This document shows positions 15,259 to 62,289 of a DNA stretch of 64,000 nucleotides, in pieces. Location: positions 3,684 through 67,683 of the forward strand of contig CAIXWQ010001121.1 in the NCBI GenBank assembly GCA_903923175.1, given 5' to 3'. Origin of the DNA: an uncultured delta proteobacterium (GTDB taxonomy: Bacteria; Myxococcota_A; Polyangia; Polyangiales; JADJMO01). How positions within the stretch are numbered: position 1 is the stretch's first letter; each line of letters starts with the position of its first letter. The notes below the pieces were generated by a model that did not search any database, was not told where the DNA came from, and saw nothing but the letters and a program-made list of their open reading frames with translations. The translations under genes were made by a program, and so were the position numbers.

Positions 15259-15386
15259 GGGAGAGCTGTAGTGCAGGCAAGGGGCGTCGTCACGCGCGGG
15301 CGCTTGATGCGCAGCGTCGAGCGGTGACCGGTCGAGTCGGAAGTTGCCCAACGCCCCTCGAACGTGATGCCCTGCAGGGGCACCTC

Positions 15387-19794: not shown

Positions 19795-19804
19795 ACGTCC
19801 GGTC

Positions 19805-22714: not shown

Positions 22715-22900
22715 GACGGCCCTGGGGCGCGACCGCGGCGCGGCAGGCCGCAGAGGCAGGCTCGGGGCGCCGCACGCCCGCCGCCTGGACGTGCCACGTG
22801 GCTTCGTTTGAACTTCCGCGGGCTCCGTGTCAACAAACGCCCTCGTGACGAAGCCCATGCTCCGCGGAATGGACGAGCTCGCCCGAGCTAGGGGCCAGGC

Positions 22901-24217
22901 GTGAGCGCGACGGCGTCCGCTGGCCCGGTCGCGGCGCGTCCCAAGCTCCTGGATCGTCTGCTCGAGCAGACGACCGTCTACGAGCTCCCCTTCTTCGTGA
23001 TGCTCTGCCTGCTCGCGGCGTCGATCCCCAACGAGTCGCTCTTCGGCGGCTACGACTCGAGCACCGGCAAGGGGTTCCGCTCGCCGAGCTACTACCTCGG
23101 TCTCGGCGCCTCGGTGCTGAGCACGATGCTCTTCCCCCGCATGGCCCGCGCCTGCGCGCGCTCGATGCCGATGGTGCTGCTCGTCTCGGCGTTCTCGGTG
23201 TCGCTGGTCGTGCTCACCGCGCTCGTCCTCACGACGGACGCGACCTACCGCCACGAGTACCAGATCGACCGGCAGTACAAGTCGGTCTTCATGGCCGTGA
23301 TGTTCATCGTCGTGACCGGCCACCAGCTCTGGCGCAAGCGCGTGATGCAGTCCTACCTGGTCGGCTGGTTCATCTTCGTCGTCGTCGCGCTCGGGCTGGT
23401 CGTCACCGGTCGCGCGACGACCGTGCAGCACTTCAACGCCGCCCGGATCTCCGTGCTCGGCATGAACGAGAACGTGCAGAGCACCATCGCCGGCTCGGGC
23501 GCCGTCATGTGCCTGAACTTCGCCCTGTTCGAGCGCAGGAGCCGACACTTCGCGCTCTGGGCGGGGCTCTACGTCCTCGGCCTCGCGGCGTTCGTCATCG
23601 GCACCAGCCGCACCGGGCTGGTCGGGCTGGTCGCCGGCCACCTCGTGGTGATCGTCATGGGGTTGTCCGCCGACAGGAAGGGCGCGGCGCGGCTGAGCAG
23701 GCTCCGCGTCCCCGTGATCGTCATCGGGTTCTTCGCCAGCGCCCTCGCCATCGCGAGCCAGTTCGGCATCTTCGACCGCGCGGTGACCTCGATGGGATCC
23801 CGGAGCGAGGCGGCATTCGAGGGTACGGACCTCGGTCACCGCGATCAGCTGGCGCGCGCGACGCTGCGCATCTTCACGGAAAACCCTGCGGGGGTCGGCA
23901 TGGGGAGGACGATGGACTTCCTGCAGGGCTCCGACCCGCATAACGGCTACCTCAAGCTCGCGGCGGAGGGGGGCGTCGCGGGGATGCTCCTCTTCGTGTT
24001 CGCGATGCTCGCGGCGCGCCGGAATGCGAGCGCGTGGATGCGGGCCGACGCTGACGAGATCGGGATCGCGGCCTGCTTCGTCCTCTACGCCTTCAGCGGC
24101 TTCACTGGCCAGGCGCTCCAGGAGTCGCCGTTCTGGTTCTTCTTCGCGTTCCTCGCCGTCTTGCCTGGCGCGGCCAGCCTGGAGAGCGACTTGCCGCGCG
24201 CCGGCGCGCTCTCGTGA
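22901..24217 (+). CDS. O-antigen polymerase/ligase-family membrane protein (Wzy-like)
   Basis: GTG start. About 10-12 hydrophobic helices. Wzy_C-type motif …GSDPHNGYLKLAAEGGVAGMLLF…. Confidence 0.85.
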   Translation: MSATASAGPVAARPKLLDRLLEQTTVYELPFFVMLCLLAASIPNESLFGGYDSSTGKGFRSPSYYLGLGASVLSTMLFPRMARACARSMPMVLLVSAFSVSLVVLTALVLTTDATYRHEYQIDRQYKSVFMAVMFIVVTGHQLWRKRVMQSYLVGWFIFVVVALGLVVTGRATTVQHFNAARISVLGMNENVQSTIAGSGAVMCLNFALFERRSRHFALWAGLYVLGLAAFVIGTSRTGLVGLVAGHLVVIVMGLSADRKGAARLSRLRVPVIVIGFFASALAIASQFGIFDRAVTSMGSRSEAAFEGTDLGHRDQLARATLRIFTENPAGVGMGRTMDFLQGSDPHNGYLKLAAEGGVAGMLLFVFAMLAARRNASAWMRADADEIGIAACFVLYAFSGFTGQALQESPFWFFFAFLAVLPGAASLESDLPRAGALS

Positions 24218-30925: not shown

Positions 30926-32854
30926 CTAGACGATGTCGACGTCCTCGAGCCGCGTGTACGCGACTTCGGTCACGCCGAACCGGCTGGCCCATGAGCCCAC
31001 GGTCATGAACCACAGCAGGCGCAGCGCGGCGCTGCCTCGCGACAGCCGGGTTCGGTTGCCGACGAAGTCTTTCCATAGGGCGAGCGGGCTCGTCCCCGTG
31101 AGCGCGCCGATTCGAGCGTCGTGGTCGCCGAGGAAGGTGCCGAGCTCGATGGCTGCGGCGGGGCGAGACATCCACGCCTCGAGCGGCAGTGAGAATCCGC
31201 GCTTGCTCGCCCAGGCCAGCTCGCCCAAGCCATGTCGATCGAGGATCCTGCGCAGCACGATCTTGCCGCGGCCGAGCCCGATCATGGCGTCGGGCGCGAG
31301 CGAGGCCGCGAGCCTCACCAGCTCGTCGTCGAGCAACGGGACGCGCACCTCGAGCGAGGCCGACATCGAGGCGACGTCGACCTTCGTCAACATCGCGTTC
31401 GGCAGTCGCTCGATGCGATCGGTGAACATCGCGAGCCGCTCGGGCGTGGCACCGTCGAGGGCGCCGGCGACCAGCCCCTCGATGCGCGCGGTGAGCGCGC
31501 GCGACGCCGCCGCGGACTCGTTCTGATCGGCCCAGTCCAGCCCAGCCACGGCTCGGTACGCGTCGCCACAGCTCAGGTCGGCGACGCTCAGCATTCTCAG
31601 CGTGCGCCGGAGGGGCGACGGCCATCGCCCGCGTCGAAGGCTCGCGCGCGCGACGCGACCGACCACCGCGGGGACCACCGCGGGGAACGGACGGCGAACG
31701 CGGTCCAGCTGCGACACCCAACGATGTCCGTCGTAGCCGCCGAAGATCTCGTCGCCTCCATCCCCCGAGAGGGCGACCTTCACGTCGGCCCTCGCCGCGA
31801 TGCTGAGCGCGCGCACGCCGAGCGCGGAGACCTCGGCGAACGGCTCGTCGAACGATTCGGGGAGCTGCAGGACGTCCGCGACGTCGAACTGGTCGAGCTC
31901 GATCGTCTTGTGCACCGTGCCGAGCGTGCGCGCCGTGCGCTCGGCGACGCTCGACTCGTCATGCGCACCGCGCACCTTGATCGAAAACGTGTGCACCGGG
32001 GCCGCGGAGAGCCTGCACATCAGGGCGGTCACGAGGGAGGAGTCCACCCCCCCACTGAGGAACGCGCCGACGGGAACGTCCGCGACCATCTGGCGGCGAA
32101 CCGCGCGCGTCAGCGCGGCCTCGACGGCGTCGACGGCGTCGGCGCCACGGAGCGTAGGCCGCGGTCGCTCGACCAGCGGGGCGAAGCGCCGCCGCGTCGG
32201 GGCCGCCTCGCCGCGCGCGAGCTCGAGGATGGCGCCGGGCTCCAGCCGGCGGAGGCCATCGAACGCGGTCAGCGGCCAGGGGACGTGCGTGCGCGCGCCG
32301 CCGATGGCGAGCGCGAGTCCGTCGGCGCGCCGTGGCACGCGTGGATCGGCGAGAATCGCCTTGAGCTCGGAGGCCGCGCGGAACACGCCGCCATGAACCC
32401 CGTAGAACAGCGGCTTGATCCCGAATCGGTCACGCGCGAGGACGAGCGTGTTCCGCCTGCGGTCGAGCAGGGCGAAGGCGAACATCCCCTCGAGCCGCTC
32501 GACGGCCGCGGCCCCCCACTCCTCGAAGGCGTGGATGATGACCTCGCCGTCACCGTGCGTGCGGAAGACGTGCCCGAGGGCCGCCAGCCGCTGCCGAAGC
32601 TCTTGGAAGTTGTAGATCTCGCCGTTGAAGACGGTGACGATCGAGCCGTCCTCGTTCGAGAGCGGCTGCGGGGAGCCCGCGACGTCGATGATCGACAAGC
32701 GTCGGTGCGCGAGCACCGCCCAGTCGTCGAAGCGGGCCACGGAGGCCTCGTCGGGCCCTCGGTGCGCCAGCTGGGAGCCCATGCGGGCGGCGATCGCCTC
32801 GTCCTCCGCGGCCAGCGCGCCGGAGAGCCGCGCGAAGACGACTAGGCCGCACAT
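30926..32854 (-). CDS. Asparagine synthase (glutamine-hydrolysing) family amidotransferase, paralogue 1
   Basis: N-terminal MCG nucleophile. HRGPD…, RLSIIDV…QP. PP-loop SGGVDSS in the synthetase domain. Confidence 0.92.
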   Translation of the reverse strand: MCGLVVFARLSGALAAEDEAIAARMGSQLAHRGPDEASVARFDDWAVLAHRRLSIIDVAGSPQPLSNEDGSIVTVFNGEIYNFQELRQRLAALGHVFRTHGDGEVIIHAFEEWGAAAVERLEGMFAFALLDRRRNTLVLARDRFGIKPLFYGVHGGVFRAASELKAILADPRVPRRADGLALAIGGARTHVPWPLTAFDGLRRLEPGAILELARGEAAPTRRRFAPLVERPRPTLRGADAVDAVEAALTRAVRRQMVADVPVGAFLSGGVDSSLVTALMCRLSAAPVHTFSIKVRGAHDESSVAERTARTLGTVHKTIELDQFDVADVLQLPESFDEPFAEVSALGVRALSIAARADVKVALSGDGGDEIFGGYDGHRWVSQLDRVRRPFPAVVPAVVGRVARASLRRGRWPSPLRRTLRMLSVADLSCGDAYRAVAGLDWADQNESAAASRALTARIEGLVAGALDGATPERLAMFTDRIERLPNAMLTKVDVASMSASLEVRVPLLDDELVRLAASLAPDAMIGLGRGKIVLRRILDRHGLGELAWASKRGFSLPLEAWMSRPAAAIELGTFLGDHDARIGALTGTSPLALWKDFVGNRTRLSRGSAALRLLWFMTVGSWASRFGVTEVAYTRLEDVDIV

Positions 32855-33222
32855 GGCTCACTCCATCGAATTCCCTCCGCCGGGCCAGGCGGGAGTCCTG
32901 GTGCGGCTGCGGGGGCCAGGGGCGTCGCTTCGTCGGGCGTCATCGATGGCTCGGCATTTCCTCGCGGAATGCTCGTGACAGTAGCATGCGGCTCACGCTC
33001 TCGATGCCATGGAATGGGCGCGGCCGAGCCGCCTGGCGACCCTGGTGCGTGAGCGCCCCGTGTCCGAGATCGGCTTGGTTGCGGCGCCCCGCGACGCGTT
33101 CAACGTGCTTCGTCGATCCAAGCCACGTTGCGCACCTCGATCGCCTCGGCTATTCGAGAGACGACCGCGTCTTCGTGGCTCGTCCCCCGGGGCGAATCGT
33201 TGGGAGAGTTCGCTTGCGCGTG

Positions 33223-34365
33223 ATGATCCTCGTCGGCTCGCTCGGGCGAGGTGGCGCCGAGCGGCAGGCGGCGCTGACCGCCGTCGCGCTCTCGGAAGCA
33301 GGCGCGGAGGTCGAGCTCTTCGTCAGCCAGCCGCCCTTGCACCTCGCTGCGCAGCTGACGCCCAGCGTGCGCGCGTCGCTTCCCGATGCCACGCCGACGA
33401 ACCGGGCGCAGTGCGTCGGCCGGTTGATCCGTGAGCTCGCTGCGTTCCGCCCCGACGTGGTGGTGAGCTTCCTCAGCAGCGCGACCGCGCTGCACCTGCT
33501 CGCTCGCTCGCTCTCCGCGCGCGCGAGGGAGCCCGCCTGGGTCGTGGCGGAGCGTGGAAACCTGGTGCTGTCGGGGATCCTCGGGTTTCCGGCGCACGCC
33601 TCGTTGCAACTCGGCGCGCGGCGGATGGCCGACCGAATCGCGGTGAACTCGGCCTCGCTCGCCGCGAACCTGTTCGCGTTCGACCGGAGCCTCGTCGACA
33701 AGATCGAAATCGTCGACAACATCTTCGTCCCGTTCGAACGGTGTGCGGAGCCACGCGCGGCGTTGCTCGCCGAATTCGGGCTCCCGGCAGACGCCGTCAT
33801 CGTGGGCTCGGTCGGCTCCTTTCAGGTCGATCGGAACTACGCCCTGCTCGCGAGGGCTTGGCCGCGCGTGCGCGAGCTCCATCCAACCGCACGGCTCGTC
33901 GTCTTCGGACGCACCGCGGGGCGCGAGTGCGCTCGGTCTGCCGAGGCGTTCGCCCGCGAGATCGGCGAAGAGGCGCTGGGGCACCGCGTCTTCGTCGCCG
34001 GGGAGCGTGCGGAGGTCAGGGCTCTGATGAGCGGCTTCGACGTGCTCGCGGCGCCCTCGATGCTCGAGGGGTCCTCCAACGCCCTCGTCGAAGCGCTCTG
34101 GTCCGGCGTCCCGATCGCGGCGACGGGGGCAGCGGACAACGCGCTCCTCGCGCGAGACGCCGCCGTGATCTCGCGCGGCTGGACCGCGAGCGCGGTCGCG
34201 GCGGCCATCGACGAGGCGCTGCGCCGCGGCGACGAGCTTCGCGTGGCCGCTCGCGACAGGGGCCGGGAGATCGGCGCCGAGCGAACGCCCGCCCGGGTCG
34301 CGGCGCGTTGGCTCGAGCTGCTCGGTCAGGCCCGCGCCGCAAAACACGAGCGGCGTCGGTCCTAG
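33223..34365 (+). CDS. Glycosyltransferase family 4 (GT-B)
   Basis: MILVGSLGRGGAERQ is an N-terminal GT4 signature. The C-terminal E-x7-E region is …PSMLEGSSNALVEALWSGVP. TTG 33214 or GTG 33220 starts are also possible. Confidence 0.88.
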   Translation: MILVGSLGRGGAERQAALTAVALSEAGAEVELFVSQPPLHLAAQLTPSVRASLPDATPTNRAQCVGRLIRELAAFRPDVVVSFLSSATALHLLARSLSARAREPAWVVAERGNLVLSGILGFPAHASLQLGARRMADRIAVNSASLAANLFAFDRSLVDKIEIVDNIFVPFERCAEPRAALLAEFGLPADAVIVGSVGSFQVDRNYALLARAWPRVRELHPTARLVVFGRTAGRECARSAEAFAREIGEEALGHRVFVAGERAEVRALMSGFDVLAAPSMLEGSSNALVEALWSGVPIAATGAADNALLARDAAVISRGWTASAVAAAIDEALRRGDELRVAARDRGREIGAERTPARVAARWLELLGQARAAKHERRRS

Positions 34366-34419
34366 CGACGTCTCGGGTGCGAGGGCGCGACGTCGACCGC
34401 AGCGCGCGCATGATGCGCG

Positions 34420-34805
34420 CCACGCCGCCAGGCCGAAGCACGCGCAAGACCTCACGGAAGGCCTGCGGGGGATTCGGCGAGTGGTGCAAGACTCCATAGG
34501 AGTCGGCGAGATCGAACGACGCGTCGGCGAACGGAAGGTGCTCCGCGTCGGCAACCTGAAGCCGACTTTGGAGTCCGTCGAAACGTAGCCGTTCGGCCGT
34601 GAACTCGATCGCCTTCTCGGTCAGATCCACGCCCGTCAGAGAGCGCGGCCGCGAGCGAGCCCACTCCAGGTGATCCGCGCCCATCTCCACGCCGACCTCG
34701 AGGACCTCCAGCGGCTCACCCATGGAGCTGCCTTCGGCGTGGACCTCGCCGCACGCTTTCGCCTGCCGAGAACTCTCGGAAGGCTACCTGGCTCTCGGCG
34801 GTCAT
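34420..34805 (-). pseudogene. Remnant of a class I SAM methyltransferase (frameshifted N-terminus, no proper C-terminus)
   Basis: The ORF from ATG 34723 encodes …LEVLEVGVEMGAD…LTGVDLTEKAIEFTAERL…ADAEHLPFADASFDL…YGVLHHSPNPPQAFREVLRVLRPGGVARIM. Motif I therefore starts at residue 7, and a G is replaced by E. After ARIM the frame runs as Arg-rich antisense into the GT gene. A separate ATG at 34805 in another frame gives MTAESQVAFREF…. An in-frame stop lies at 34784-34786. Confidence 0.45.
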
Positions 34806-34946
34806 CGCTCGCGACACACGCCAAGGGCGTAGGCTGGGCCAGCTGCGCGCGTGCGCCTCGAGGAACGGTTCGAGCGGAACAAAGCGAAACGGCGCGTCCC
34901 CTCCAGGAGAGGAACGCGCCGTTCGCTGCAGATGTCGTCGCCGGCG

Positions 34947-37571
34947 CTAGTTCACGGTGAACGTAGCTTCGGAGATGTAGGTGAACCCGTCATTCAGGTA
35001 GAACCGCACGCGGTAGCTCCCCGCGGGGAGTCCGGTGAAGGCCGTCGACGAGTTCGGGACCGCGTTGGTGTAACGCCAGAACCAGCCCGTCGGGTACGAC
35101 GCGTCGAGCGCGCCGACCGGCGCGATCCCGACCCAGTCGTGGATGTTCGAGGTCGTCGTCCAGTTGACGTTCACCGTCTCACCGACGAGGTACGTCGGCT
35201 TGTCGGTCGAGACGGTGCCGCCGGTGACGGTGAACAGCGCTTCGGCCGTGTAGTTGAACGTGTCGTTCAGGTAGAAGCGGACGCGGTAGCTGCCGGCCGT
35301 GAGCCCACTGAAGCTCTTGCTGCCGTTCGCCACGCCGTTCGTGTACGCCCAGATCCAGCCGGTCGGGTACGTCGAGTCCGCGGTGCCGACTGGGGTGATC
35401 CCCACCCAGTCGTGCGAGTTCGTCGTCGTCGTCCAGCTCACGAGCACCGAGGTGCCCGCGCCGTAGGTCGACTGGTCGGTGTTCACCGACGAGCCGTTGA
35501 CGGTGAACAAAGCCTCCGCGACGTACGTGAACGAGTCGTTCAGGTAGAAGCGAACTCGGTAGTTGCCCGACGGGATGCCCGTGAAGGCGTGGCTGCCGTT
35601 GACCACGGCGTTCGTGTACGACCAGAACCACCCGGTGGGGTACGTCGAGTCGGCGGTGCCGACCGGCGCGATGCCGACCCAGTCGTTGGCGTTGGCCGAC
35701 GTCGTCCAGTTGACGGTCACGGTCGCGCCCGTACCGTACGCGCTCTTGTCGGTCGCGACGGTGTCGTTGCTGACCGCGAACGTCGCCTCGTTCGTGTAGG
35801 TGAACGTGTCGTTCGTGTAGAAGCGGACGCGATAGCTGCCGGCGGGGATGCCGGTGAAGCCCTTGCTGCCATTCGACACGCCGCTCGTGTAGCTCCAGAA
35901 CCAGCCGGTCGGGTAGGTCGAGTCGGCCGCACCGACGGGCGCGATGCCGACCCAGTCCTTGGCCGCCGTCGACGCGCCCCAGCTGACCGTGACGGTCGAG
36001 CCGGTGCCGTAGGTGGCCTTGTCGGTCGCGACGCCGGTCGTTCCGCCAGCGACCGCGGCCGTGACGGTGAACGTCGTCTCCGCGGTGTAGAGGCCCGTGT
36101 CGGCGATGTAGAAGCGCGCCGTGTACGTGCCGACGGCGAGGCCCGAGAAGCTGTGTCCCGTGTTGGGGACGCCGTTGGTGTAGGCCCAGGCCGTGAGGGT
36201 CGACGACCCCTGGGGCAGGATGCCGACCCAGTCGGTCGTGGTGGTCGACGACGTCCAGCTCACGACGGTCGGCTCACCAGCCGAGTACGAGCTCTTGTCG
36301 GTCGCGATCGTGTACGTGACGCCCGTGCCGCCCGGCGTGCCGGTGGCGACGGTGAAGTGCGCCTCGGCGACCGGGTTGAACGAGTCGTTCGTGTAGAGGC
36401 GGACGCGATACGTGCCAGCCTGACCGCCCAGGAAGGCCTTGCTGCCCGACGCGACGCCGTTCGTGTACGCCCACTGGATGGACTTGTTGTCCGCCGAGCC
36501 GACGAGCGCGATCGCGACGTAGTCCTTCGCGCTGGTCGACCCCGTCCAGTTCACGTTGACGGTGTCGAAGTAGTACGTACACGACGAGCCCGAGGGGTTG
36601 CAGGTCGACGAGACGCTGTAGGCCGACTTGTCGGTCGTGACCGTGAACGCGGGGGTCGACGGCGTCGACGTCACCGTGAACGTGGCCTCGCCGCCGTAGG
36701 TGTACGTGTCGTTCTGGTAGAGGCGAACGCGCCAGCTGCCAGCCGTCAGATTGAAGAACTTGGTCGAGCCGGCCGCGGTGCCGCCGGTGTAGACGTAGTC
36801 GGTGATGGTCGAGTCCGTGGCGCCGACCGGGGCGACGGCGACGTAGTCGCGAGCGCTGGACGAGTTGCTCCAGGTGACCGCGACCGCCTCGCCGAGGTTG
36901 TAAGACGACTTGTCGGTCGACACGCCGTTCGACACGACAAAGGTGGTCTCGGCGACCACCGTGAACGTGTCGTTCGTGTAGAAGCGAACGCGCCAGTTTC
37001 CGCCCGCGTTGACGGTGAAGCTCGCGCTGCTGGCGGCGACGCCGTTGGTGTACGCGAACTGCGTCACCGTCGAGTCACTCGAACCGACGGGCGCGATGCC
37101 GACCCAGTCCTTGGCCGCGAGCGAACCGGTCCAGCTCACGACGACCGTACCGCCCGTGTAGCTGGGCTTGTCGGTCGCGACCGTGTAAGCGTTGACCGTG
37201 AACGCCTGCGACGACTCGAGCGTGTTGTCGCCGCGGAAGAAGCGAGCCTCGTAGCTGCCGGCGGGGAGCGCGGCGAACGTGTGCGTCCCCGAAACGCCCG
37301 GCGCGTAGGACCAGGCCGTGAGCGTGGTGTTGGGGGCGCCCGCAGGCGCGATCGCGACGTAGTTGGTGTTCGACGCCGTCTCGTTCGCCCAGTTGACCAC
37401 CACCGATTGGCTCGTCGCGTAGACCGTGAGCGAGGTGCTCACGACCTGGGAAGCCTTCTGGCCGGTCGGGTCGGACGTCTCGGCCGCGCAACCTACACCT
37501 ATGGTGAGCGCGAGTAGTTGCAAGAACAGAAGAATCAGACGCCGCGAGCTCCAAGTCATCATCGCCTCCAT
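34947..37571 (-). CDS. Lipoprotein built from nine tandem ~90-aa beta-sandwich-like repeats (unknown function)
   Basis: Signal and lipobox (LLFLQLLALTIGVGCAAE). Nine repeats have the consensus V-x-TDK-x-x-Y-x-x-G-x-x-V-x-V-x-W-(6)-DWVGIAPVG-x-x-DSTYPTGWFW-x-YTNGV-x-NGS-x-x-F-x-G-x-x-AGSYRVRFY-x-ND-x-F-x-x-x-AEA-x-FTV. Start is set at ATG 37571 (GGAG upstream); ATG 37562 or 37559 are also possible. Confidence 0.85.
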   Translation of the reverse strand: MEAMMTWSSRRLILLFLQLLALTIGVGCAAETSDPTGQKASQVVSTSLTVYATSQSVVVNWANETASNTNYVAIAPAGAPNTTLTAWSYAPGVSGTHTFAALPAGSYEARFFRGDNTLESSQAFTVNAYTVATDKPSYTGGTVVVSWTGSLAAKDWVGIAPVGSSDSTVTQFAYTNGVAASSASFTVNAGGNWRVRFYTNDTFTVVAETTFVVSNGVSTDKSSYNLGEAVAVTWSNSSSARDYVAVAPVGATDSTITDYVYTGGTAAGSTKFFNLTAGSWRVRLYQNDTYTYGGEATFTVTSTPSTPAFTVTTDKSAYSVSSTCNPSGSSCTYYFDTVNVNWTGSTSAKDYVAIALVGSADNKSIQWAYTNGVASGSKAFLGGQAGTYRVRLYTNDSFNPVAEAHFTVATGTPGGTGVTYTIATDKSSYSAGEPTVVSWTSSTTTTDWVGILPQGSSTLTAWAYTNGVPNTGHSFSGLAVGTYTARFYIADTGLYTAETTFTVTAAVAGGTTGVATDKATYGTGSTVTVSWGASTAAKDWVGIAPVGAADSTYPTGWFWSYTSGVSNGSKGFTGIPAGSYRVRFYTNDTFTYTNEATFAVSNDTVATDKSAYGTGATVTVNWTTSANANDWVGIAPVGTADSTYPTGWFWSYTNAVVNGSHAFTGIPSGNYRVRFYLNDSFTYVAEALFTVNGSSVNTDQSTYGAGTSVLVSWTTTTNSHDWVGITPVGTADSTYPTGWIWAYTNGVANGSKSFSGLTAGSYRVRFYLNDTFNYTAEALFTVTGGTVSTDKPTYLVGETVNVNWTTTSNIHDWVGIAPVGALDASYPTGWFWRYTNAVPNSSTAFTGLPAGSYRVRFYLNDGFTYISEATFTVN
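34950..37445 (-). repeat. Nine in-frame tandem coding repeats (~270-285 bp each). The four promoter-distal copies (about 34950-36035) are the most similar.
   Basis: Seen by aligning the translated repeats. The mirror-image periodicity also shows in the spurious antisense ORF 34851-37517. Confidence 0.85.
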
Positions 37572-37979
37572 GCTCGATCGCTCCGCGAGCAGCGGTAGAA
37601 GTGCCGCATAATCCGTCGAATCCTGACGCGCGGAGTCCGGAAAGTCCACACGCCTCGAGGTCAAGTTCTCGTCCGCTCGGGGGGCGGGGAGTCACCCGGA
37701 AGGTACGCTACGAACCGCTTCGCGTGTCGGTTAAGCCGCCGCGACCGGACCTCCGACTTCACGAATTCCTGACCTTCCCGCGGAAGGCCGACGGGAGAAT
37801 CCAGCCGTCCCCGGCGCGTCCGATGCGTGCGGGGGGCTCGACATTCGACGCCACGGCGGCGCCCCCGGGCCTCAAGCACTGTCCCGCGGAGTGAGCGGGA
37901 GCGAAGACCGTTCCAAGCTCGCGCCGCGGAGGCAGGCGACGTCGCACCTGCGCCGCGAAACCGGCGACGCGCGCGCGGC

Positions 37980-39143
37980 TCAGACCGCGCGGTAGATCTC
38001 GGCGAGTCGGAGCCCCTGCGTCCGAGCGTCGAAGTGCGCGCCGATGCGCTCGCGTGCAGCCGAGGCGAGCGATAGCCAGCGCGATGGGGCGTCCATCAGC
38101 CACTCCAGACCGGCGACGAGCCCCTCGGGATCGCGCTCGGCCGCGAGCACGCCCGAGACACGATCCTCGAGAATGTTCGGGATGTCGCAGTGGGTCGTCG
38201 CGACGACCGGCATCCCTGAGGCGGCCATCTCGATGATGCTGACGGGGGCCCCCCCCTCGGTGTCGCCGTCGGCCGCGGTGACGCTCGGCGACAGGAAGAC
38301 GTGGTGGCGCTCGGCCTCCGACATCAGCACGTCGTAGGGCTGGAACCCGAGCATCCGACAGCTCCCTTCGAGGCCGCCCCGCCGCAGCGCCTCCACGATG
38401 CGGGCCTTCTCGACGTCGTCGCCAGGCTTGCCGGCCGCGTCGCCGATGATGGTGATCGCCAGCTCGAGGTTGCGCTTCCTGCGAAGTCTCGCGAGGGCTT
38501 CGATCGCGATGGGGAACCCCTTCTTCTCGCGAAACGTGCCGGCAAGGAGCACCCGGAGTGGCTCGGCGGTGGGGCAGGTGCGCGGCCGGAACTCGATGTG
38601 CTCCAGGTCCACGCCGAGGTGGTGAACGAGCACCTTCCCGGGCGGACAGCCCAGCTCGATCGCGCAACGCCGCATGTGCGGGCCCTCGCAGAGGACCCGG
38701 GCGACCGACGCGAAGAGCTCGCGATACCGGCCGCGCCAGCGAGGATCGCTCGCCGGCAGCTGGCTGATGTCGGCGCCATAGAAGGTGACGACCTGGCGCG
38801 CGCGCGCAGCCGCGGCCGCGCCCATGTCGGCCCAGCCCGCGTGTCCGAAGTGGCTGTGGATGATCCGCGAATCCGTCTGTCGCGCCACGCGCGAAAGGAA
38901 GCCGAGGTGTCGTCGCAGACGCAAGCGCCTCGCGAGTCGATCCGGCACCCGCCTCCACGCTGGCTCGTCGGCGAAGCAGCGGAGATCGGGCGCAGGGAAC
39001 GCGCCGAGGTTCTGGGTCGACTCGCAGGCGACGTGGGACTCGATGTCGTCAGGGAGCCAGCGCACCTGCTGATAGAGCCACGCCTGCGTGCGAGGCAGCC
39101 AGCTCGAGCAGCTGTGTACGACCGAGAGGCGCGGAGTGCTCAT
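37980..39143 (-). CDS. Glycosyltransferase (GT-B, family 4-like)
   Basis: The start ATG 39143 gives MSTPRLSVVHSCSSWLP. The C-terminal region is …FLSPSVTAADGDTEGGAPVSIIEMAASGMPVVATTHCDIPNILEDRVSG (EX7E-type). Confidence 0.88.
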   Translation of the reverse strand: MSTPRLSVVHSCSSWLPRTQAWLYQQVRWLPDDIESHVACESTQNLGAFPAPDLRCFADEPAWRRVPDRLARRLRLRRHLGFLSRVARQTDSRIIHSHFGHAGWADMGAAAAARARQVVTFYGADISQLPASDPRWRGRYRELFASVARVLCEGPHMRRCAIELGCPPGKVLVHHLGVDLEHIEFRPRTCPTAEPLRVLLAGTFREKKGFPIAIEALARLRRKRNLELAITIIGDAAGKPGDDVEKARIVEALRRGGLEGSCRMLGFQPYDVLMSEAERHHVFLSPSVTAADGDTEGGAPVSIIEMAASGMPVVATTHCDIPNILEDRVSGVLAAERDPEGLVAGLEWLMDAPSRWLSLASAARERIGAHFDARTQGLRLAEIYRAV

Positions 39144-39364
39144 GCCGAATGTCGTCCCTGCTACGCGGAAGCCCTGAGCGGGCCAGCTCACGGACCCCGC
39201 AATGCGAACGAGCACCGCGCGGGAGCGCCCGGCGCGCGCACCGATTCCCACGGATTCGTTGCCGCGTCACGGCTGGCATTCGAGCGCGCGCGGCGCCGCG
39301 TCCAGCGGCTCGACGCACTGGCGCCGGGCCGTTTGGTCGTGCTAGGCGGAAGGTCGAGGCATGA

Positions 39365-41260
39365 ATGTGCGGCATCTTCGGTGAGCTACGCCCGGCCGTA
39401 GCCGACGACGCGCGTCGGAGGCTCTGGGCCGAGGGGGCGATCGCGGCGCTGCGGCATCGCGGGCCTGATGGTCACGGCCTCTGGTCCGACGAGCACGCGC
39501 TCCTCGGTCACCTGCGCCTCGCCATCCTGGACCTCTCGGATCGAGCTTCGCAGCCGATGGCGGCGGCGAGCGAGCGGTCGGTGGTCGCCTTCAATGGCGA
39601 GATCTACAACTTCGCCGACGTCCGGAGCACCCTCGCCGAGCCGCGCGGCGGCTGGCGCTCGTCGGGCGACACGGAGGTCCTGACCGAGCTCCTCGATGCG
39701 CGCGGGCTCGACGCCCTCGAAGCGCTGTGGGGCATGTTCGCGTTCGCCTGCTATCGGCCGGAGTCGCGCGAGCTCTGGCTGGCCCGGGATCGACTCGGCA
39801 AGAAGCCGCTCTACTACGCGCGAACGCGCGCAGGGGGACTGCGCTTCGCGAGCGAGCTCTCGGGGCTCCTCTCCGACGACGCGGTGCCGCGACGGACCTC
39901 GCCCGACCGACTCGCCGAGTATCTCCAGCACGGCTACGTCTCGGCGCCGCGCACCGCGCTCGTCGACGTCTCGCAGCTCGAGCCCGGCGAGCTGCTCGTC
40001 GCCCACGTGCGCGACGGGGGGCTCGAGCTGTCGAGGCGTCACTACTGGCGCCTGCCCGAGGCGAGGCCGGTCCACCGCACGCGCGACGAGTGGGACGAGG
40101 ACTTCGGTCACACGCTGCGGGACGCGGTCAAGCGACGCCTGCGGTCGGACGTGCCGCTCGGGGCGTTTCTCAGCGGCGGGATCGACTCTTCGGTCGTCAC
40201 CCGCCTCGCGGCCGAGCAGCTGGGCGAGCCGCTGCGCACGTTCACCGTCGACTTCGAGGTCGCCGCGTTCTCCGAGGCCGCCCACGCCCGCGAGGTCGCC
40301 GCCGCCGTAGGGACGAGCCACGCGGAGCTGACGCTGCGCGAGGGCGACATCGTCGGCATCGACGAGCTCGTAGGCATCTACGGCGACCTGCAGGGAGACT
40401 CCTCGGCCCTGCCGACGCTCGCGCTCTGCGCAGCGGCGCGCCGAGAGGTCACCGTCGCGCTGTCGGGCGACGGCGGCGACGAGCTGCTCGGCGGGTACGC
40501 GCGCTACGGCGCGACGCTCGCCGATCTCCAGCGCATTTCGCGCGTGCCGCGCTTCGCCACCGCCGCGACGCGTGCGCTCGCGAAGCTCGCGCCCGTCTGG
40601 CTGCGCGGCCCGTCACGCCTCGGCCGACTGACCTCGGATCTCGCTCGGTACTACGCGCTGGAGGTCCGCTCCTATTCGCCGCGCGAGTGGCCGCCGGTCC
40701 TCCGCTCCTCGCTGCGGAGCCCGTGGGTCGATTCGATCGCCGAGGCGGTCGCAGGCCAGGCGTCGCGCTCCCCGCTGCAGCGGTTGATGGCGACGGACAC
40801 GTTGACGTACCTCCCGGGAGACGTGCTCGTGAAGGTCGACCGCGCGAGCATGGCGCACGGCCTGGAGGTCCGCTCCCCGCTGCTCGACCACCGCCTCTTC
40901 GAGCTCACCATGGTCGCCGATCCTGCGTGGCTCTCCGACGAGCACGGCACGAAGGCGCCGCTGCGCAGGCTCTACGCCGCCAGGTTGCCGACGCCCGTCT
41001 TCAACCGTCGGAAGATGGGGTTCGGCGTGCCGCTGCGGCACTGGCTGCGCGGCTCGCTCGCCGACCTCGCGAAGGCGCGCCTGCTGCGTCCCGGCTCCCG
41101 GCTCTCGGGGGTCGTCGACGCGACCCAGGTACGCCGCAGCTTGTTCGCCCACGCGCGCGGCCTCCGAGACGAGTCGACGCGAATCTGGCACTTGTTGCTC
41201 CTCGATGCCTGGCTCGACCGCTGGAGCGTCGCGGTCGAGGAGCCGCCGGGCAGCCGATGA
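39365..41260 (+). CDS. Asparagine synthase (glutamine-hydrolysing) family amidotransferase, paralogue 2
   Basis: MCGIFG nucleophile. HRGPDG, RLAILDLSDRASQPM. PP-loop SGGIDSS. Its stop overlaps the next start (ATGA at 41257-41260). Confidence 0.92.
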   Translation: MCGIFGELRPAVADDARRRLWAEGAIAALRHRGPDGHGLWSDEHALLGHLRLAILDLSDRASQPMAAASERSVVAFNGEIYNFADVRSTLAEPRGGWRSSGDTEVLTELLDARGLDALEALWGMFAFACYRPESRELWLARDRLGKKPLYYARTRAGGLRFASELSGLLSDDAVPRRTSPDRLAEYLQHGYVSAPRTALVDVSQLEPGELLVAHVRDGGLELSRRHYWRLPEARPVHRTRDEWDEDFGHTLRDAVKRRLRSDVPLGAFLSGGIDSSVVTRLAAEQLGEPLRTFTVDFEVAAFSEAAHAREVAAAVGTSHAELTLREGDIVGIDELVGIYGDLQGDSSALPTLALCAAARREVTVALSGDGGDELLGGYARYGATLADLQRISRVPRFATAATRALAKLAPVWLRGPSRLGRLTSDLARYYALEVRSYSPREWPPVLRSSLRSPWVDSIAEAVAGQASRSPLQRLMATDTLTYLPGDVLVKVDRASMAHGLEVRSPLLDHRLFELTMVADPAWLSDEHGTKAPLRRLYAARLPTPVFNRRKMGFGVPLRHWLRGSLADLAKARLLRPGSRLSGVVDATQVRRSLFAHARGLRDESTRIWHLLLLDAWLDRWSVAVEEPPGSR

Positions 41261-42465: not shown

Positions 42466-42618
42466 CTCGACGCGCGGCGGACGCGCCGCACGCGCGCTCG
42501 GCTTGGCCCGGCGACCCGCACGGCTTGCACGAAAGGGTCGGCCGCTACCGCCATCTCAGCGCAAGGCGGGCCCGCCGAGCTGTTGATGATCCTCATCCGG
42601 AGGCGCAAGCTTCGAAGC

Positions 42619-44646
42619 ATGTCCACTCGCATGCGCGCGCACGTGGTCGTCACCGCGCTCTCGGCCTGCACCGCGCTCGCTGCATGCTCCTCGTCCGACA
42701 CCGGGGTGGAGCCCGACGCAGCCCCACCCGCAGACGCGGGGGACACGAGCCTCGTCGACGCGGCCGACGCGGCCGACGACTCGGCCTCGGTGGACTCGAC
42801 GGTCGCCGAGGCCGACGCATCGAGCGGCGACGTGAGCGACGCCGGCGAGCTCGACACCTTGGCGGAGTCGGGGCTCGACGCGGCGGACACGTCCGACACG
42901 GCGGCGCTGCCGGACGTCGTGGGTACGGACACAGGCGTGCTCGACGCTGGCTCGGACGCGCTCGACGCGGCCCCCGACGGCGTGGTCGACGTAGGCCCCG
43001 ACGCCGCCGACGGCGGGAGCGATGCCGGGCCCGCCAGCTCGGCCTTGTGCGTCTCTTGCTCGGCGAGCCAGAAGACCTGCAACGGCGCCTGCCGCCCGGT
43101 CGGGACCGACCCACGCACGGGCTGCGGGAGCTCGTGCTCGCCCTGCCGCCTCGCGCACGCGACGCCGAGCTGCGCGGGCGGGGCCTGCGCGATCGGCAGC
43201 TGTGATGCGGGCTGGGCAGACTGCGACGGCAACGCCGCGAACGGCTGCGAGGCCGATCTGCACAGCCGTGACACCTGCGGCGGCTGCTCGGCCAAGTGCG
43301 CGACGGGGAGCGTCTGCTCGGCCGCAGGGTGCGTCGCGACCTGCACGCCGCCCGACACGCTCTGCACCGACCGCTGCGCCAACCTCGTGACCGACCCCGC
43401 GCATTGCGGCTCGTGCACCGCCTCGGGCACGACCGACGTGAACGCGGTGCTCTCCTGCTCCGGCGGGACGCTCAGTCGCTCGTGCCGCACCGGCTACACG
43501 AGCTGCAGCGGGACTTGCGTCGACCTCGCGAACGATCCGCTCAACTGCGGCGCCTGCAACGTCCACTCGCCGAAGCCCCGTGGCGGGACCGCAGCGTGCG
43601 TGGCGGGCGCGCCCGTCGCCGAATGCCCCACGGGGCTGACCGTCTGCAGCGGCGTCTGCGTGGCCCCGCAGGTCGACGCGGCGAACTGCGGCGCGTGCGG
43701 GAAGAAGTGCGCGACCGGCGAGCTGTGCCTCGCCTCCGCGTGCGTGTCGTCGGCGTCGATCTGGCTCGTCAGCGGCCTGTCGCAGCCCGAAGACGTCGCG
43801 ATCGACGCGAGCTACGTCTACTGGACCGACATCGGCGACGGGAGCGTGCGCAGGGTCGCGAAGGGCGGCGGGGCGTCGACGGCGATCGCGACGGGGCAGT
43901 CGCGGCCGAGGCGCCTCGCGCTCGACGACACCTACGTCTACTGGTCGAACGAGCTCGGCGGCGCCATCATGCGGGCCCCGAAGGACGCCTCCGCGGCGCC
44001 GACGATCGTCTCCACCGCAGTGAGCCCTTGGGGCGTGATCACGCTCGGCTCCTACGTGTTCTTCACCGACGGCAACGGCGTGAGCCGCGTGCCGAAGGCG
44101 GGCGGCGCGCCCACGAGCTGGGCGAGCATCAAGGGGAAGGAGCTCGTCACGGACGGCGCGGGCGTCGCGATGTGGACGACGCCCGACTTCACCTCCCCCT
44201 CCAACTTCGACTGGAGGATCGACGCTGCCACGGGCGCGACCACGCAGCTGGGGATCGCGACCTACCTCTATCGCTCCCCGATCGCCGTCGACGATCGCTA
44301 CCTCTACTCGGGCTACGGCTCGTCGACGCGCTCGCTCGTCGAGGTCGACAAGGCCGTCGCGGACGTCACGTACGCCGCCGTCCCCACGCTCGACAGCTTC
44401 CTCATGGCGCCCACCGCGGTCGCGCCGAACGCCTGCGGAACCTTCTGGACGGGCTTTCGCAAGATCTACACGCTCGATCCGTTCCCCTCCACGGCGGCGC
44501 CGGCGATCGTCATGTATCGCTTCGGCTGGCCCGACTGGATCACGCTCGTCGACACGCTCGACACCGGCAAGCGCATCGTGACCGACGCCGGCTACGTGTA
44601 CTGGACCGACAAGGCGGCCGTCGGTCGCCTGCCGCTGCCGCGCTGA
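42619..44646 (+). CDS. Lipoprotein with an Asp/Ala-rich linker, Stig1-like Cys-rich repeats and a YWTD-type beta-propeller-like C-terminal half
   Basis: Signal and lipobox (VVVTALSACTALAACSS). Repeated C-x-x-x-C-x-D-L/x-x-x-D-P-x-N/HCG-x-C motifs (…CTDRCANLVTDPAHCGSC…, …CSGTCVDLANDPLNCGACN…, …CVAPQVDAANCGACGKKC…). Then recurrent YVYWTD / YVYWSN / YVFFTD / YLYSG / YVYWTD blades. Confidence 0.85.
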   Translation: MSTRMRAHVVVTALSACTALAACSSSDTGVEPDAAPPADAGDTSLVDAADAADDSASVDSTVAEADASSGDVSDAGELDTLAESGLDAADTSDTAALPDVVGTDTGVLDAGSDALDAAPDGVVDVGPDAADGGSDAGPASSALCVSCSASQKTCNGACRPVGTDPRTGCGSSCSPCRLAHATPSCAGGACAIGSCDAGWADCDGNAANGCEADLHSRDTCGGCSAKCATGSVCSAAGCVATCTPPDTLCTDRCANLVTDPAHCGSCTASGTTDVNAVLSCSGGTLSRSCRTGYTSCSGTCVDLANDPLNCGACNVHSPKPRGGTAACVAGAPVAECPTGLTVCSGVCVAPQVDAANCGACGKKCATGELCLASACVSSASIWLVSGLSQPEDVAIDASYVYWTDIGDGSVRRVAKGGGASTAIATGQSRPRRLALDDTYVYWSNELGGAIMRAPKDASAAPTIVSTAVSPWGVITLGSYVFFTDGNGVSRVPKAGGAPTSWASIKGKELVTDGAGVAMWTTPDFTSPSNFDWRIDAATGATTQLGIATYLYRSPIAVDDRYLYSGYGSSTRSLVEVDKAVADVTYAAVPTLDSFLMAPTAVAPNACGTFWTGFRKIYTLDPFPSTAAPAIVMYRFGWPDWITLVDTLDTGKRIVTDAGYVYWTDKAAVGRLPLPR

Positions 44647-44683: not shown

Positions 44684-46903
<2,220 letters not shown>

Positions 46904-47237
46904 GGCGGGCGGTGGAGAGCGCGCCGTGTGCGGCTGCTCTCACGGGTAGAGGTTGTTGCGAGGCGGGCGCCGTACGTTCAGAGCCCCGGGGGGCCTCGCC
47001 GACGGCGGTCGTTCGGCATTGTGCTGGGCGCGCACCCTAGCAGGCCACCGAAAGGCAGCCGGCGGAAACTGTGGACGGCCTCCGGCCGCGCGAAATACGC
47101 GGCAATTCTCGGCACGACTCAGCGGCTGCTCGGCGGGGAGGCGGCCATTTGCCGAGCGACGCGATCGCGGCCGAGCGCGCGTCGCGTCGCCCTCGGGAGC
47201 CGGTCGGGCCTGCCCGTCGCGAGGACCGCCCGCCTGT

Positions 47238-49697
47238 TCACGGCGTCGCGCTTGGGACCGTCACGGCCCGCGAGAGCGACAGATGTGCGCGGGCGGCAGC
47301 GTCCGAATAGCGACGCTCCATCGGGAAGGCGGTCGCCAGGCGGGACCAGGCGAGGTTCGCCACGGACCAGGCGCCGGTGCTCTCGGCCGCCGCCGCGATG
47401 GCCTCGACCGCGGCCCACGCCGTGGGGTAGGTCGCAGTCGCGTCGAGGTAGCGATCGAGGGCCTTGGCCGGGTGCTTGCGCGCGAGCTCGATCGAACCGA
47501 GCAGCGCGAGGAAGCGCCCCATCGGCAGCCCATGCCTCAGGGTCAGGTCTCGTGTCTCGTCGGCGAGCTGCGTGAGCCCCTCGAGCCCGAGGCGGACTCC
47601 TCGGCGATGGAGCAGCCCCTCGCGGAGATCCACGTCGTCGGGGCACCGCGCGATCCCCTTCTCGAGCTCGCTCTCGGCCTCGATGGGATCGGTGATGAGC
47701 TTCGCCTCGAGGAGATACGCGCGCCCCTCGGAGGGGTCGAGGTCGCGCAGCGCGCGGACCTCACGCAGCGCCCGCGGGACGTCGCCCGCGTCCGCCGCCC
47801 GGTGCGACTCGCGCAGGCGGGCCAGGGCGGCGGGTGGGAAGCGCGCGATGAAGTCGCGGTCCAGCAGCACCGCGTCGGCCGCCCTGGAGGCGGCGACCAG
47901 GCGCTTGACCGCGAGCTCGAGCCTCGCCTCGTTCGTCGTCATCGTCTGGATCTCCTCGACCGGAGCACCGAATCCGACGACATCGGTGAGCACCGCGTCG
48001 GCCATCTTCTCCGAGAGCCGGAGCGCCTCTCGGTACTCGCCCCACGCCTGCGGCGACCGTCCGGCGGCGAGCAGCGTTCGAGCCACCCAGAGATGCGTGA
48101 TCGCGCGGTAGGGCGCGAGCTTCACGGCGCGGATCACGTGGGCGCCTGCGCTGGCCTGCGGCAGGCGGGCGACGCCCGCGGCGAGGGCCAGATAGGGGTC
48201 CGCCGGGTGGCGCGTGGCGGCGTCGTCGACCTGCGCGACCACCGTCGAAAGCCGCCCTTCGCGCCAGGCTGCGGAGACGTTCGCCTGATCTTCGTCGAGC
48301 GACGTGCGCCACTGCGGCCGGAGCAAGATCAGCCCGAGCAGCGGTGTCGCGATGCCAAAGGCGCGGTCGGACAACGCCGGGGCCCGGACGCTGGTCCGGC
48401 CTTCCCGCGTCGGGGGGGCGGACGCGACGATCGCGAACAGCGCTGCGGCGAGGAGTCCGACCCCGGCGAACTCGGTCGCGAAGTCGAACTGCTCATGGAT
48501 TCCCAGCCCCATCAGGGCCACGAGCGCACCTGCGTAGACGGGCCGGCGTAGCGAGTCGCGCGTCGAGCGCGCGAGCACGTACGCCAAGCCCGCGAGCAGG
48601 CAGGCGGCCACGGGGAGCCCGAGCTCGGAGGCGAGCTCGATCGGCAGGTTCTCCGGGTGCGAGAAGCGGACGAGCCCCGCCGCGGACGGCGCCTCGTAGG
48701 CGGCGAACGCCGAGGCGAAGGCGCCTCTACCGACGCCGAAGCGGGCGTGCTCGAGCGCGAGCTGCCCGCCGCGTCGGATGAGATCGAGCTTCGACAGATC
48801 CCGGTCGCCCGCCTCGTGGACGAGCGAGTCACCCGCGACCATGAACGCGGTCGCGACCGCGGCCACGAGCGCACCGAGGCCGAGCGCCAAGGGGGCCTTT
48901 CGCCCCTGCTGCCGCCACGACGCCGCGTACACGCTCATCGCGACGAGCTCGAAGACGAGCACGCCGATGCCGCCACGGCTGAGCGTCAGCACGACGATCG
49001 CGCCAGTGGCGATCACCCCGACGCCAGCGAGCATGCGCGCGCCCAGCGCTTCTCGCTCGACCGCAAACCCGAACAGCAACGGCGGAGCGATGGCGGCCGC
49101 CGCGGCGGCATGGTTGGGGTTCAGCAGCGTGAGCGTGATCGGCAGATCGGTCGCCAGCGCGTGGCGCGGCGTGTAGAGGCCGAACGCCACGCCGTGGTCC
49201 CAGATTCGCGCCAGCACGCCGACGGCGCCGAAGACGACGATCGCGTAGATGCAGGCGCGCGCGATCCGCTCCCGACCGGCGCGATCGCTCGCGATCAGCG
49301 TGACGACGTGCAGGAAGGCCGCGGTCGTCAGCGCCGTCGCCAGCGCGAAGGCGGTCCCGGGCGGATCGAGCGTCACCGGGTGGTGTCGCGCCGCCCGCCC
49401 GAACGTCGCGTCCACCGAGGCCCAGATGGCGGCGGACTGAGGGCTCACGAGCCGCAGCAGCGCATCGGGCAGGGGCACCAGCTGCAACGCGCAGAATCCA
49501 GCGTGCGCCCACGCGAGCCCGACCACGAGCCGCGCGGTGGTGCTCCTGACGCGCGAGCGCCGAGAGAGCGCCTCCGCGAACGCGAGGCACACGACGCAGG
49601 AGGCCGCGATGACCAACGTCGCCGGCGAGACGCCGCCGAGCGCCAGCAACGGCACCGTGAGCGCGAGCGTCAGGAGCGTGTTTCGCAGAGTATGCAC
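47238..49697 (-). CDS. O-antigen ligase/polymerase-family membrane domain fused to a C-terminal TPR-like domain
   Basis: GTG start. About 12 TM helices with the Wzy_C-like motif …RFSHPENLPIELASELGLP…. About 330 C-terminal residues are helical repeats (…AWGEYREALRLSEKMADA…, …GRAYLLEAKLITDPIEAESELEKGIARCPDD…). Confidence 0.85.
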   Translation of the reverse strand: MHTLRNTLLTLALTVPLLALGGVSPATLVIAASCVVCLAFAEALSRRSRVRSTTARLVVGLAWAHAGFCALQLVPLPDALLRLVSPQSAAIWASVDATFGRAARHHPVTLDPPGTAFALATALTTAAFLHVVTLIASDRAGRERIARACIYAIVVFGAVGVLARIWDHGVAFGLYTPRHALATDLPITLTLLNPNHAAAAAAIAPPLLFGFAVEREALGARMLAGVGVIATGAIVVLTLSRGGIGVLVFELVAMSVYAASWRQQGRKAPLALGLGALVAAVATAFMVAGDSLVHEAGDRDLSKLDLIRRGGQLALEHARFGVGRGAFASAFAAYEAPSAAGLVRFSHPENLPIELASELGLPVAACLLAGLAYVLARSTRDSLRRPVYAGALVALMGLGIHEQFDFATEFAGVGLLAAALFAIVASAPPTREGRTSVRAPALSDRAFGIATPLLGLILLRPQWRTSLDEDQANVSAAWREGRLSTVVAQVDDAATRHPADPYLALAAGVARLPQASAGAHVIRAVKLAPYRAITHLWVARTLLAAGRSPQAWGEYREALRLSEKMADAVLTDVVGFGAPVEEIQTMTTNEARLELAVKRLVAASRAADAVLLDRDFIARFPPAALARLRESHRAADAGDVPRALREVRALRDLDPSEGRAYLLEAKLITDPIEAESELEKGIARCPDDVDLREGLLHRRGVRLGLEGLTQLADETRDLTLRHGLPMGRFLALLGSIELARKHPAKALDRYLDATATYPTAWAAVEAIAAAAESTGAWSVANLAWSRLATAFPMERRYSDAAARAHLSLSRAVTVPSATP

Positions 49698-49756
49698 GGG
49701 AGACCGCTACCTTCGGTTCGGGCGTGACGGGGCGGGGCGCTACGCGCGAGGCGAGG

Positions 49757-60234: not shown

Positions 60235-60235
60235 C

Positions 60236-62203: not shown

Positions 62204-62289
62204 GGCTCTAGCCCTCCGGTCGGACCGGCGCGCAACGGGGCGCGACCAGAATCTCGAGAGGACTACTGCCAGAAATCATGCCCATTCGG

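Follow-up and report, generated by a model that had tools for sequence, protein, structure and literature searches.

A nine-repeat predicted lipoprotein with a SKICH-like modelled fold, encoded in a polysaccharide locus of an uncultured member of the Polyangiales

The gene and its nine repeats

The DNA considered here is a stretch of 64,000 nucleotides (the window) from an uncultured delta proteobacterium of the Polyangiales (contig CAIXWQ010001121.1 of assembly GCA_903923175.1, positions 3,684 to 67,683). At 34947-37571(-) the window carries an intact gene with strong codon bias, which encodes a predicted lipoprotein built entirely of tandem repeats and lies within a large block of polysaccharide-biosynthesis genes. 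The minus-strand open reading frame (ORF), counted from an upstream TTG, spans 34947..37664(-) and comprises 905 aa. In a window of approximately 72% GC it combines a GC3 of 0.93 with a GC1 of just 0.49, which together mark it as a real coding sequence, and the composition of its product is unusual (rich in Thr, Ser, Asn and Tyr). A preliminary description of the window had recorded a repeat lipoprotein at this site, and the gene, its lipobox, its nine tandem repeats and the lack of any further domain are all confirmed.

After a short linker, the mature protein consists of nine tandem repeats of 86-112 aa each, and nothing besides. From the N-terminus, all on the minus strand, these are R1 (37188-37445), the most divergent copy with 31-41% identity to the other repeats; R2 (36927-37187); R3 (36660-36926); R4 (36324-36659), which carries a 14-aa insertion, STCNPSGSSCTYYF, and a Gly/Pro/Thr linker at its end; R5 (36042-36323); R6 (35766-36041), the first of four similar copies with a YPTGWFW loop insertion; R7 (35493-35765), the copy used for the structure model; R8 (35220-35492); and R9 (34950-35219), which ends the protein. 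The STCNPSGSSCTYYF insertion includes the sole two internal Cys residues of the protein and may form a disulfide-closed loop unique to R4. A profile of the repeats retrieves the protein at E 8e-293 in nine stretches, and the repeat structure is far beyond chance.

Pairwise identity over the nine repeats ranges from 31 to 70% and is highest among R6-R9 (63-70%), where Tandem Repeats Finder reports a period of 273 nt with 3.7 copies and a score of 963. The four C-terminal copies are thus the most alike, as had been noticed earlier, and the division into nine modules of about 90 aa also stands; the long 'invariant core' proposed with it is valid for R6-R9 only, in which 45 columns are invariant as against 13 over all nine repeats. 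The aromatic YPTGWFW loop is inserted in R6-R9 and in no other copy. The likeness of these four copies had further been taken as a sign of recent amplification, which is rejected here. Among identical residues, synonymous codon identity is 0.58-0.76 in R6-R9 pairs, no higher than in older pairs such as R2/R6 (0.75) and R3/R4 (0.74), so that silent sites are at the codon-bias baseline. R6-R9 are, as judged from their codons and columns, a distinct and conserved sub-type with an aromatic loop and not young copies.

Two start codons come into question. ATG 37571, which the preliminary description had chosen, is possible; ATG 37559 (MTWSSRR...), with GGAGG 5 nt upstream, is the more likely one from its sequence context, and it is also the start used for an identical public protein (P0001). 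The N-terminus, MTWSSRRLILLFLQLLALTIGVG followed by Cys, is a predicted signal peptide closing on a lipobox. Its coordinates, counted from the upstream ATG, are 37491..37571(-), with an n-region containing RR and a hydrophobic core LILLFLQLLAL. The lipobox Cys codon (37488..37490, minus strand; TIGVG followed by Cys) corresponds to residue 24 from the MTWSS start and is the predicted lipidation site, i.e. mature residue +1. The protein fits the PROSITE-style lipobox pattern [LIVMFWSTAG]{2}[LIVMFYSTAGCQ][AGS]C and, having both a signal peptide and a lipobox Cys, is predicted from its sequence pattern to be a substrate of signal peptidase II. The linker AAETSDPTGQKASQ (37446..37487, minus strand) places 14 residues between the lipidated Cys and R1. 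At the other end, the C-terminus (EATFTVN) coincides with the end of R9 and has no C-terminal sorting signal. Two peculiarities of the segment 37491-37559(-) are a run of A/T-ending codons rare for this genome (ATT CTT TTC TTG CAA CTA ATA GGT GTA GGT) and a loose resemblance of S-R-R-L-I-L to the twin-arginine motif. Upstream of the gene is an intergenic region of 408 bp (37572..37979, minus strand), the presumed promoter site, in which a sigma-70 consensus was not found; downstream, a terminator-like hairpin (34887..34924, minus strand; 15-bp stem with 9 G-C pairs and a weak T tail) starts 23 nt past the stop codon.

Fold of the repeat

Sequence searches of Pfam, NCBIfam and the PDB, for which the entire protein, every single repeat and two profiles served as queries, returned nothing above threshold, in agreement with the earlier statement that the repeat could not be placed in a named family. 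The sub-threshold Pfam matches of the protein and its repeats are SdrD_B, MG2, He_PIG and, for one repeat, SKICH (E 0.089). Weak similarity of this kind relates the repeat to the SdrD_B and CnaB/SpaA stalk domains and to the MG domains of alpha-2-macroglobulin (Pfam SdrD_B, SpaA, MG2 and A2M_BRD); the protein lies below the cut-offs of both SdrD_B (24.8 bits, threshold 29.7) and SpaA (9.5 bits, threshold 23.1). The N-terminal 'TDK..Y..G..V.V' strand motif of the repeat is typical of MG/E-set domains.

Repeat 7 was modelled with AlphaFold2 from an alignment of 86 repeat units taken from the window and from homologues. The model is an eight-strand beta sandwich of high predicted confidence (pLDDT 96.6, pTM 0.86). 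Compared with the PDB by Foldseek, its top match is the SKICH domain of NDP52 (3vvv, E 3.6e-3, TM 0.66), and the HECW2 N-terminal domain (2lfe, TM 0.70), the TAX1BP1 SKICH domain (5z7g, TMq 0.64) and an uncharacterised Leptospira protein (6oe6) are also among the top matches. These values are modest: the top matches have E values of 4e-3 to 2e-2 with TM scores of 0.6-0.7, and no PDB match reaches E<1e-3. Just below them come generic immunoglobulin (Ig)-like accessory domains of glycosidases; among the generic Ig-like matches are spacer domains from GH3, GH66 and phage tail proteins, and a Foldseek search of viral structures gave generic Ig-like matches only.

The SKICH domain (PF17751; NDP52/CALCOCO2 and TAX1BP1) and the N-terminal domain of HECW1/2 (PF16562) appear to be of the same beta-sandwich fold class as the modelled repeat. 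The likeness extends to the motif D-W-[IV]-G-[IL]-x-x-x-G, which reads KDWIGIFRVG in NDP52 and NDWVGIAPVG in the window protein. The SKICH strand motif DW[IV]G[IL][FY]..G is found in the repeat family, with family-wide frequencies of 90% for D28, 86% for W29, 89% for I/V30 and 82% for G36, and alignment of the repeat family with SKICH by hhalign covers 40 columns around the motif (E 1.9e-4, at a probability of only 47%). The Pfam SKICH model, whose gathering threshold is 23.4 bits, scores 70 bits on the homologue P0012 and 38.5 bits on P0006, both being only sums of sub-threshold repeat stretches; in the window protein it stays below threshold (whole protein, no match at E≤10; best single repeat, E 0.089). 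A profile of the repeat (A2) scored TAX1BP1 at E 0.94, and a bridging hidden Markov model (HMM) of P0012/P0006-type repeats scored NDP52 at E 1.2 and TAX1BP1 at E 4.6 (scaled to PDB size), none of them significant. Because the family HMM scores on human SKICH domains are not significant, the relation is kept as a resemblance in fold and motif, and membership of the SKICH family is not assigned: there is no significant sequence homology to NDP52 or TAX1BP1. The repeat is, in its model, SKICH-like in fold and motif. The preliminary description had guessed at a SKICH-type or other beta-sandwich module, and this guess coincides with the best structural match found, echoed by the DWxGI motif and by the summed Pfam SKICH scores on two homologues. 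Differences are also apparent, in that the near-invariant R72 of the repeat family is without counterpart in SKICH, and known SKICH domains are single-copy, cytosolic and eukaryotic, whereas the repeats described here are bacterial, tandem and predicted to be secreted and lipid-anchored. A search of the literature on bacterial or SKICH-like lipoproteins found nothing relevant.

A large family of repeat proteins

When the profile of the nine repeats was run against 1.84 billion cluster representatives (clusters at 50% identity), it matched 4027 protein clusters at E≤1e-3, of which 338 had E≤1e-30; in almost all matches the repeat is present in 3-12 tandem copies. By these profile matches the repeat is a large bacterial domain family, unnamed in the copies of Pfam, NCBIfam and PDB that were searched. 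Architectures were surveyed in the best 169 of the 4027 family proteins. Many of these are 400-600 aa long with a signal peptide and 4-6 repeats only, and a lipobox Cys is present in 46 of the 62 repeat-only proteins and in 67 of the 103 proteins with N-terminal repeats. In others of the best 169 the repeats are fused to Kelch or PQQ propellers, beta-helix, PA, vWA or metallophosphatase domains, and further to TIG/fn3, SGNH esterase or receptor-L-like domains. Judged from sequence, partners such as Kelch/PQQ, SGNH esterase, beta-helix, PA and vWA are usual for an extracellular binding or spacer module.

Close members in named genomes belong to Polyangia, Kofleriaceae and Polyangiales metagenome-assembled genomes (MAGs), with one Spirochaetales MAG and one Gemmatimonadota MAG, while two more distant vWA fusions derive from the alphaproteobacterium Vannielia litorea and a Thermoanaerobaculia MAG. 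In public databases, those repeat-only and X-domain members (see below) that bear any name are called 'hypothetical protein', and two named vWA fusions are called after their vWA domain. Other searches were less productive. No relative was found in a genome scan with R6-R9 patterns or in a metagenome scan with the full protein, a word-indexed homologue search with profile A2 gave two fragments and nothing more, and the only orthologous locus recovered is a 5.5-kb ENA contig that is 100% identical.

The polysaccharide locus in the window

The gene is surrounded by a Wzx/Wzy/Wzc-type polysaccharide locus, as the preliminary description had proposed, which extends as one large block from about 22.9 kb to the end of the window. 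This island includes a Wzx flippase, a Wzc-type tyrosine kinase/co-polymerase (44684-46939), at least six genes of glycosyltransferase family 4 (GT4), two DegT aminotransferases, methyltransferases, a FemAB-like acyltransferase and a heparinase II/III-like protein. It also encodes two Wzy_C-family membrane proteins, at 47238-49706(-) and 22892-24217(+), one of them fused to a C-terminal TPR, and three AsnB-like glutamine amidotransferases (30926-32857(-), 39365-41260(+) and 60236-62275(-)); AsnB-like genes recur in the homologue loci L003, L004 and L008. The nearest NCBIfam model for the two AsnB-like proteins scanned (30926-32857 and 39365-41260) is the XrtA/PEP-CTERM-associated TIGR03108, at 462-474 bits and below its cut-off of 817, and the best NCBIfam matches of neighbouring proteins (TIGR03108, TIGR03019, TIGR03088 and TIGR03018, all XrtA-associated) are likewise far below cut-off. 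A PEP-CTERM/XrtA exosortase system is rejected on these scores, together with the absence of an exosortase among the window ORFs scanned and of a PEP-CTERM tail.

A location between two glycosyltransferase genes had been claimed for the lipoprotein, and GT4 genes do lie on both sides, at 32692-34365(+) and 37980-39266(-); the first of these is not the immediate neighbour, as a methyltransferase remnant intervenes. This remnant of an S-adenosylmethionine-dependent methyltransferase (34387-34723(-)) lies directly downstream of the lipoprotein gene, before GT4 32692-34365. Its Methyltransf_11 domain is intact over approximately 112 aa (77 bits), after which the frame decays, becoming Arg-rich and antisense to the GT4 gene, and it is probably a frameshifted or truncated copy. 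Elsewhere in the locus, a 687-aa predicted lipoprotein (42583-44646(+), ending its signal in ALAAC) has a Stig1-like Cys-rich domain (43 bits) and is otherwise unannotated; its gene is convergent with the Wzc gene, the 3' ends being about 40 bp apart. Putative polysaccharide-cleaving enzymes flank the locus, namely a PcRGLX-like (rhamnogalacturonan lyase-like) three-domain protein at 19676-22714(+) and the heparinase II/III-like protein at 58141-60255(-). The window as a whole has a Myxococcota-like character, seen in its GC content of about 72% and in its genes for a response regulator with DUF4388, a sigma-54 activator and a Ser/Thr kinase.

Loci of relatives and companion lipoproteins

Eight of the 11 family members examined, the window protein included, are encoded inside polysaccharide loci (the other seven being P0004, P0005, P0008, P0002, P0015, P0022 and P0026). 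The neighbours of these seven comprise GT4, GT2, Wzy_C, Wzt/Wzm, Wzc, AsnB-like, methyltransferase, NeuB, DegT, Bac_transf and sugar-nucleotide genes, and in five longer MAG loci Wzc, DegT, Wzx or GT4 genes are found within 8 kb of the repeat gene. The relatives in glycan loci are just 30-38% identical, and their loci include both the Wzx/Wzy and the ABC-transporter type. Close relatives are encoded repeatedly among polysaccharide-biosynthesis genes, a pattern that would be very unlikely to arise by chance if, as is assumed, fewer than 10% of genes lie so close to such loci.

Two other families of lipoproteins, here called 'Y' and 'X', are encoded alongside the repeat lipoprotein in several of these glycan loci. 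Members of the Y family are lipoproteins of about 245 aa (L002:7144-7875, L008:7078-7818 and L017:7845-8606), and a further copy in L009, on the minus strand from about 10600, is cut off by the locus end. Against the PDB, the Y profile matches, via the CDMTTdGGGWT subdomain, the X-type lectins XEEL (E 4e-7) and intelectin-1 (E 2e-4) as well as fibrinogen beta chain, tachylectin-5A and ficolins (E 2.5e-5 to 5e-4, with ficolins at 4e-4 to 5e-4). The window itself has a lipoprotein (15219-16952(+)) in which five Cys-rich repeats (C.DG.K.G.E.D.DCGG.C..C) precede a C-terminal Y-type fibrinogen/intelectin-like domain with the motif CDMTTDGGGWT. The X family, about 355 aa in length, is Thr/Ser/Gly-rich and Cys-bounded, and occurs either as a stand-alone lipoprotein (L002:5918-7123, L008:10290-11459 and L017:8739-9881) or fused after 3-4 repeats, at the C-termini of P0005, P0015, P0020 and P0022; it is absent from the window. 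X has no Pfam match, and its AlphaFold2 model (pLDDT 91) is nearest to the V domain of PCSK9 and the APC-beta domain of apicomplexan PLP1. An enzymatic nature of X was considered and set aside, its model resembling these binding-type beta modules instead.

Proposed function and alternatives

With no domain present besides the repeats, the function of the protein has to reside in these. The reading tentatively preferred, at somewhat below an even chance, is that of a membrane-anchored, rod-like, multivalent scaffold that would bind or organise the polysaccharide of its own locus. Exported by the Sec pathway, the protein would be lipidated at Cys+1 (with Ala at +2) and anchored in the outer membrane, from which it would extend as a rod; at about 4 nm per Ig-like module, the length would be roughly 30-40 nm. 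The many similar modules would bind the polysaccharide multivalently and with low affinity, those of R6-R9 through the aromatic YPTGWFW loop, and the polymer would be tethered or organised at the cell surface by an exopolysaccharide (EPS)-retention or matrix scaffold encoded together with its biosynthesis genes. The scaffold reading is favoured because of the conserved context, the lectin-type companions and the occurrence of this module in fusions with extracellular enzymes and adhesins.

Several points weigh against this reading. Three of the 11 relatives (P0021, P0013 and P0023) are not in obvious glycan loci, and the loci of the relatives are not phylogenetically independent. Carbohydrate binding by the repeats is a conjecture for which no binding site is evident: the residues conserved in the family (G36, G57, G67, W29, Y69, F87, V89 and the D28...R72 pair) look structural and unlike a ligand site, the protein has no match to a Pfam carbohydrate-binding module, the glycosidase matches of Foldseek are Ig-like accessory domains, and the ligands of SKICH domains with known function are proteins or membranes rather than sugars. 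As to surface exposure, the default location of lipoproteins is the periplasmic face of the outer membrane.

The protein could instead be a dedicated acceptor of the locus's glycan, with a Wzy_C protein acting as O-oligosaccharyltransferase or ligase to yield a lipid-anchored glycoprotein or proteoglycan-like coat. The mature protein is rich in potential attachment residues (16.8% Thr, 11% Ser and 5.9% Asn) and has 21 N-x-S/T sequons and seven D-[ST]-[AILVMT] motifs, although Thr/Ser richness is common in beta-sandwich surface domains, and the D/N-S/T loop falls on a short helix cap in the repeat 7 model and may be structural. Dedicated glycoprotein substrates are often encoded beside glycosylation genes, as with pilin/PilO, serine-rich repeat adhesins and S-layer glycoproteins. 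Two Wzy_C proteins, one of them with a TPR fusion, are encoded in the window, and in homologue locus L003 a Wzy_C gene is paired with an ABC-transporter pathway, which needs no polymerase, making a ligase role for Wzy_C plausible; yet neither window protein has a PglL_A or Wzy_C_2 signature or an NCBIfam O-oligosaccharyltransferase match, and several homologue loci lack Wzy_C over the stretch of DNA that was available. Overall, an acceptor role, the chief alternative to the scaffold, appears unlikely. A bolder version, which is quite unlikely, would have a Wzy_C-family ligase place the finished polymer on Thr/Ser residues of the repeats, giving a lipoprotein-linked 'bacterial proteoglycan', with the intelectin-like and PCSK9-V-like companions as a dedicated surface glycan-handling set conserved in Myxococcota. 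If true, capsule or EPS would here be attached in a way that differs from anchoring by lipid A-core or by phospholipid.

That the protein is simply a passive stalk, adhesin or protective coat, its modules serving as length-setting spacers or as a generic adhesive surface and its co-location reflecting co-regulation of surface components, is judged unlikely. Such a role would agree with conserved residues that look structural only, with a repeat number that varies from 3 to 12 across the family, and with the many relatives in which repeats simply act as a connector between a lipid anchor or enzyme domain and some other part, and spacer domains (GH3, GH66, phage tail) are among the generic Ig-like structural matches. 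On the other hand, repeat-only proteins present nothing at their tip, and the association with glycan loci holds at 30-38% identity and across pathway types, arguing for a functional link. Least probable among the alternatives, and distinctly improbable, is a periplasmic accessory of polysaccharide assembly or export, which would be attached to the inside of the outer membrane and would guide or support the growing polymer on its way from Wzc to the outer-membrane exit. Gram-negative lipoproteins are indeed periplasmic by default, Wzc is encoded in the window and beside several homologues, and no Poly_export (outer-membrane polysaccharide export, OPX) domain was detected among the window ORFs scanned; nine modules (about 30-40 nm), however, are longer than the usual periplasmic width, there is no similarity to Wza, Wzi or GfcB-type proteins, and enzyme fusions that are clearly extracellular contain this repeat as well.

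Comparison with known systems and significance

The scaffold reading has parallels among characterised proteins. RbmA of Vibrio cholerae is a matrix protein with tandem fibronectin type III (FnIII) domains, encoded in the rbm cluster between vps-I and vps-II. Like the protein described here, it consists only of tandem Ig/FnIII-type sandwiches, is secreted, is encoded among polysaccharide-biosynthesis genes and is thought to organise polysaccharide. There is no sequence relationship between the two, and RbmA is a two-domain protein without a lipid anchor; its polysaccharide binding has been demonstrated experimentally, whereas that of the window protein is a proposal. The SusE/SusF proteins of Bacteroides are likewise lipid-anchored, combine an Ig-like domain with tandem beta-sandwich glycan-binding modules, and belong to a glycan-dedicated locus. 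These proteins of Bacteroidota are, though, part of utilisation loci and have recognised starch-binding sites, while the window protein belongs to a biosynthesis locus and has no identified binding site.

Taken together, the window protein may be described as an unannotated surface lipoprotein of tandem Ig-fold modules, predicted from its sequence and encoded with a polysaccharide locus, its function being read from that context. Core members of the family appear to be lipoproteins whose genes accompany those for polysaccharide biosynthesis, in Myxococcota and in some further phyla, with lectin-like lipoproteins also encoded there. The SKICH-like fold, known so far from autophagy receptors and phosphatases of eukaryotes, would thereby be extended to secreted tandem arrays of bacteria. 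How EPS is retained and organised at the myxobacterial surface is poorly understood, and it matters for gliding, biofilm formation and social behaviour; the repeat lipoprotein and its companions would provide a concrete candidate set of proteins for EPS retention in myxobacteria.

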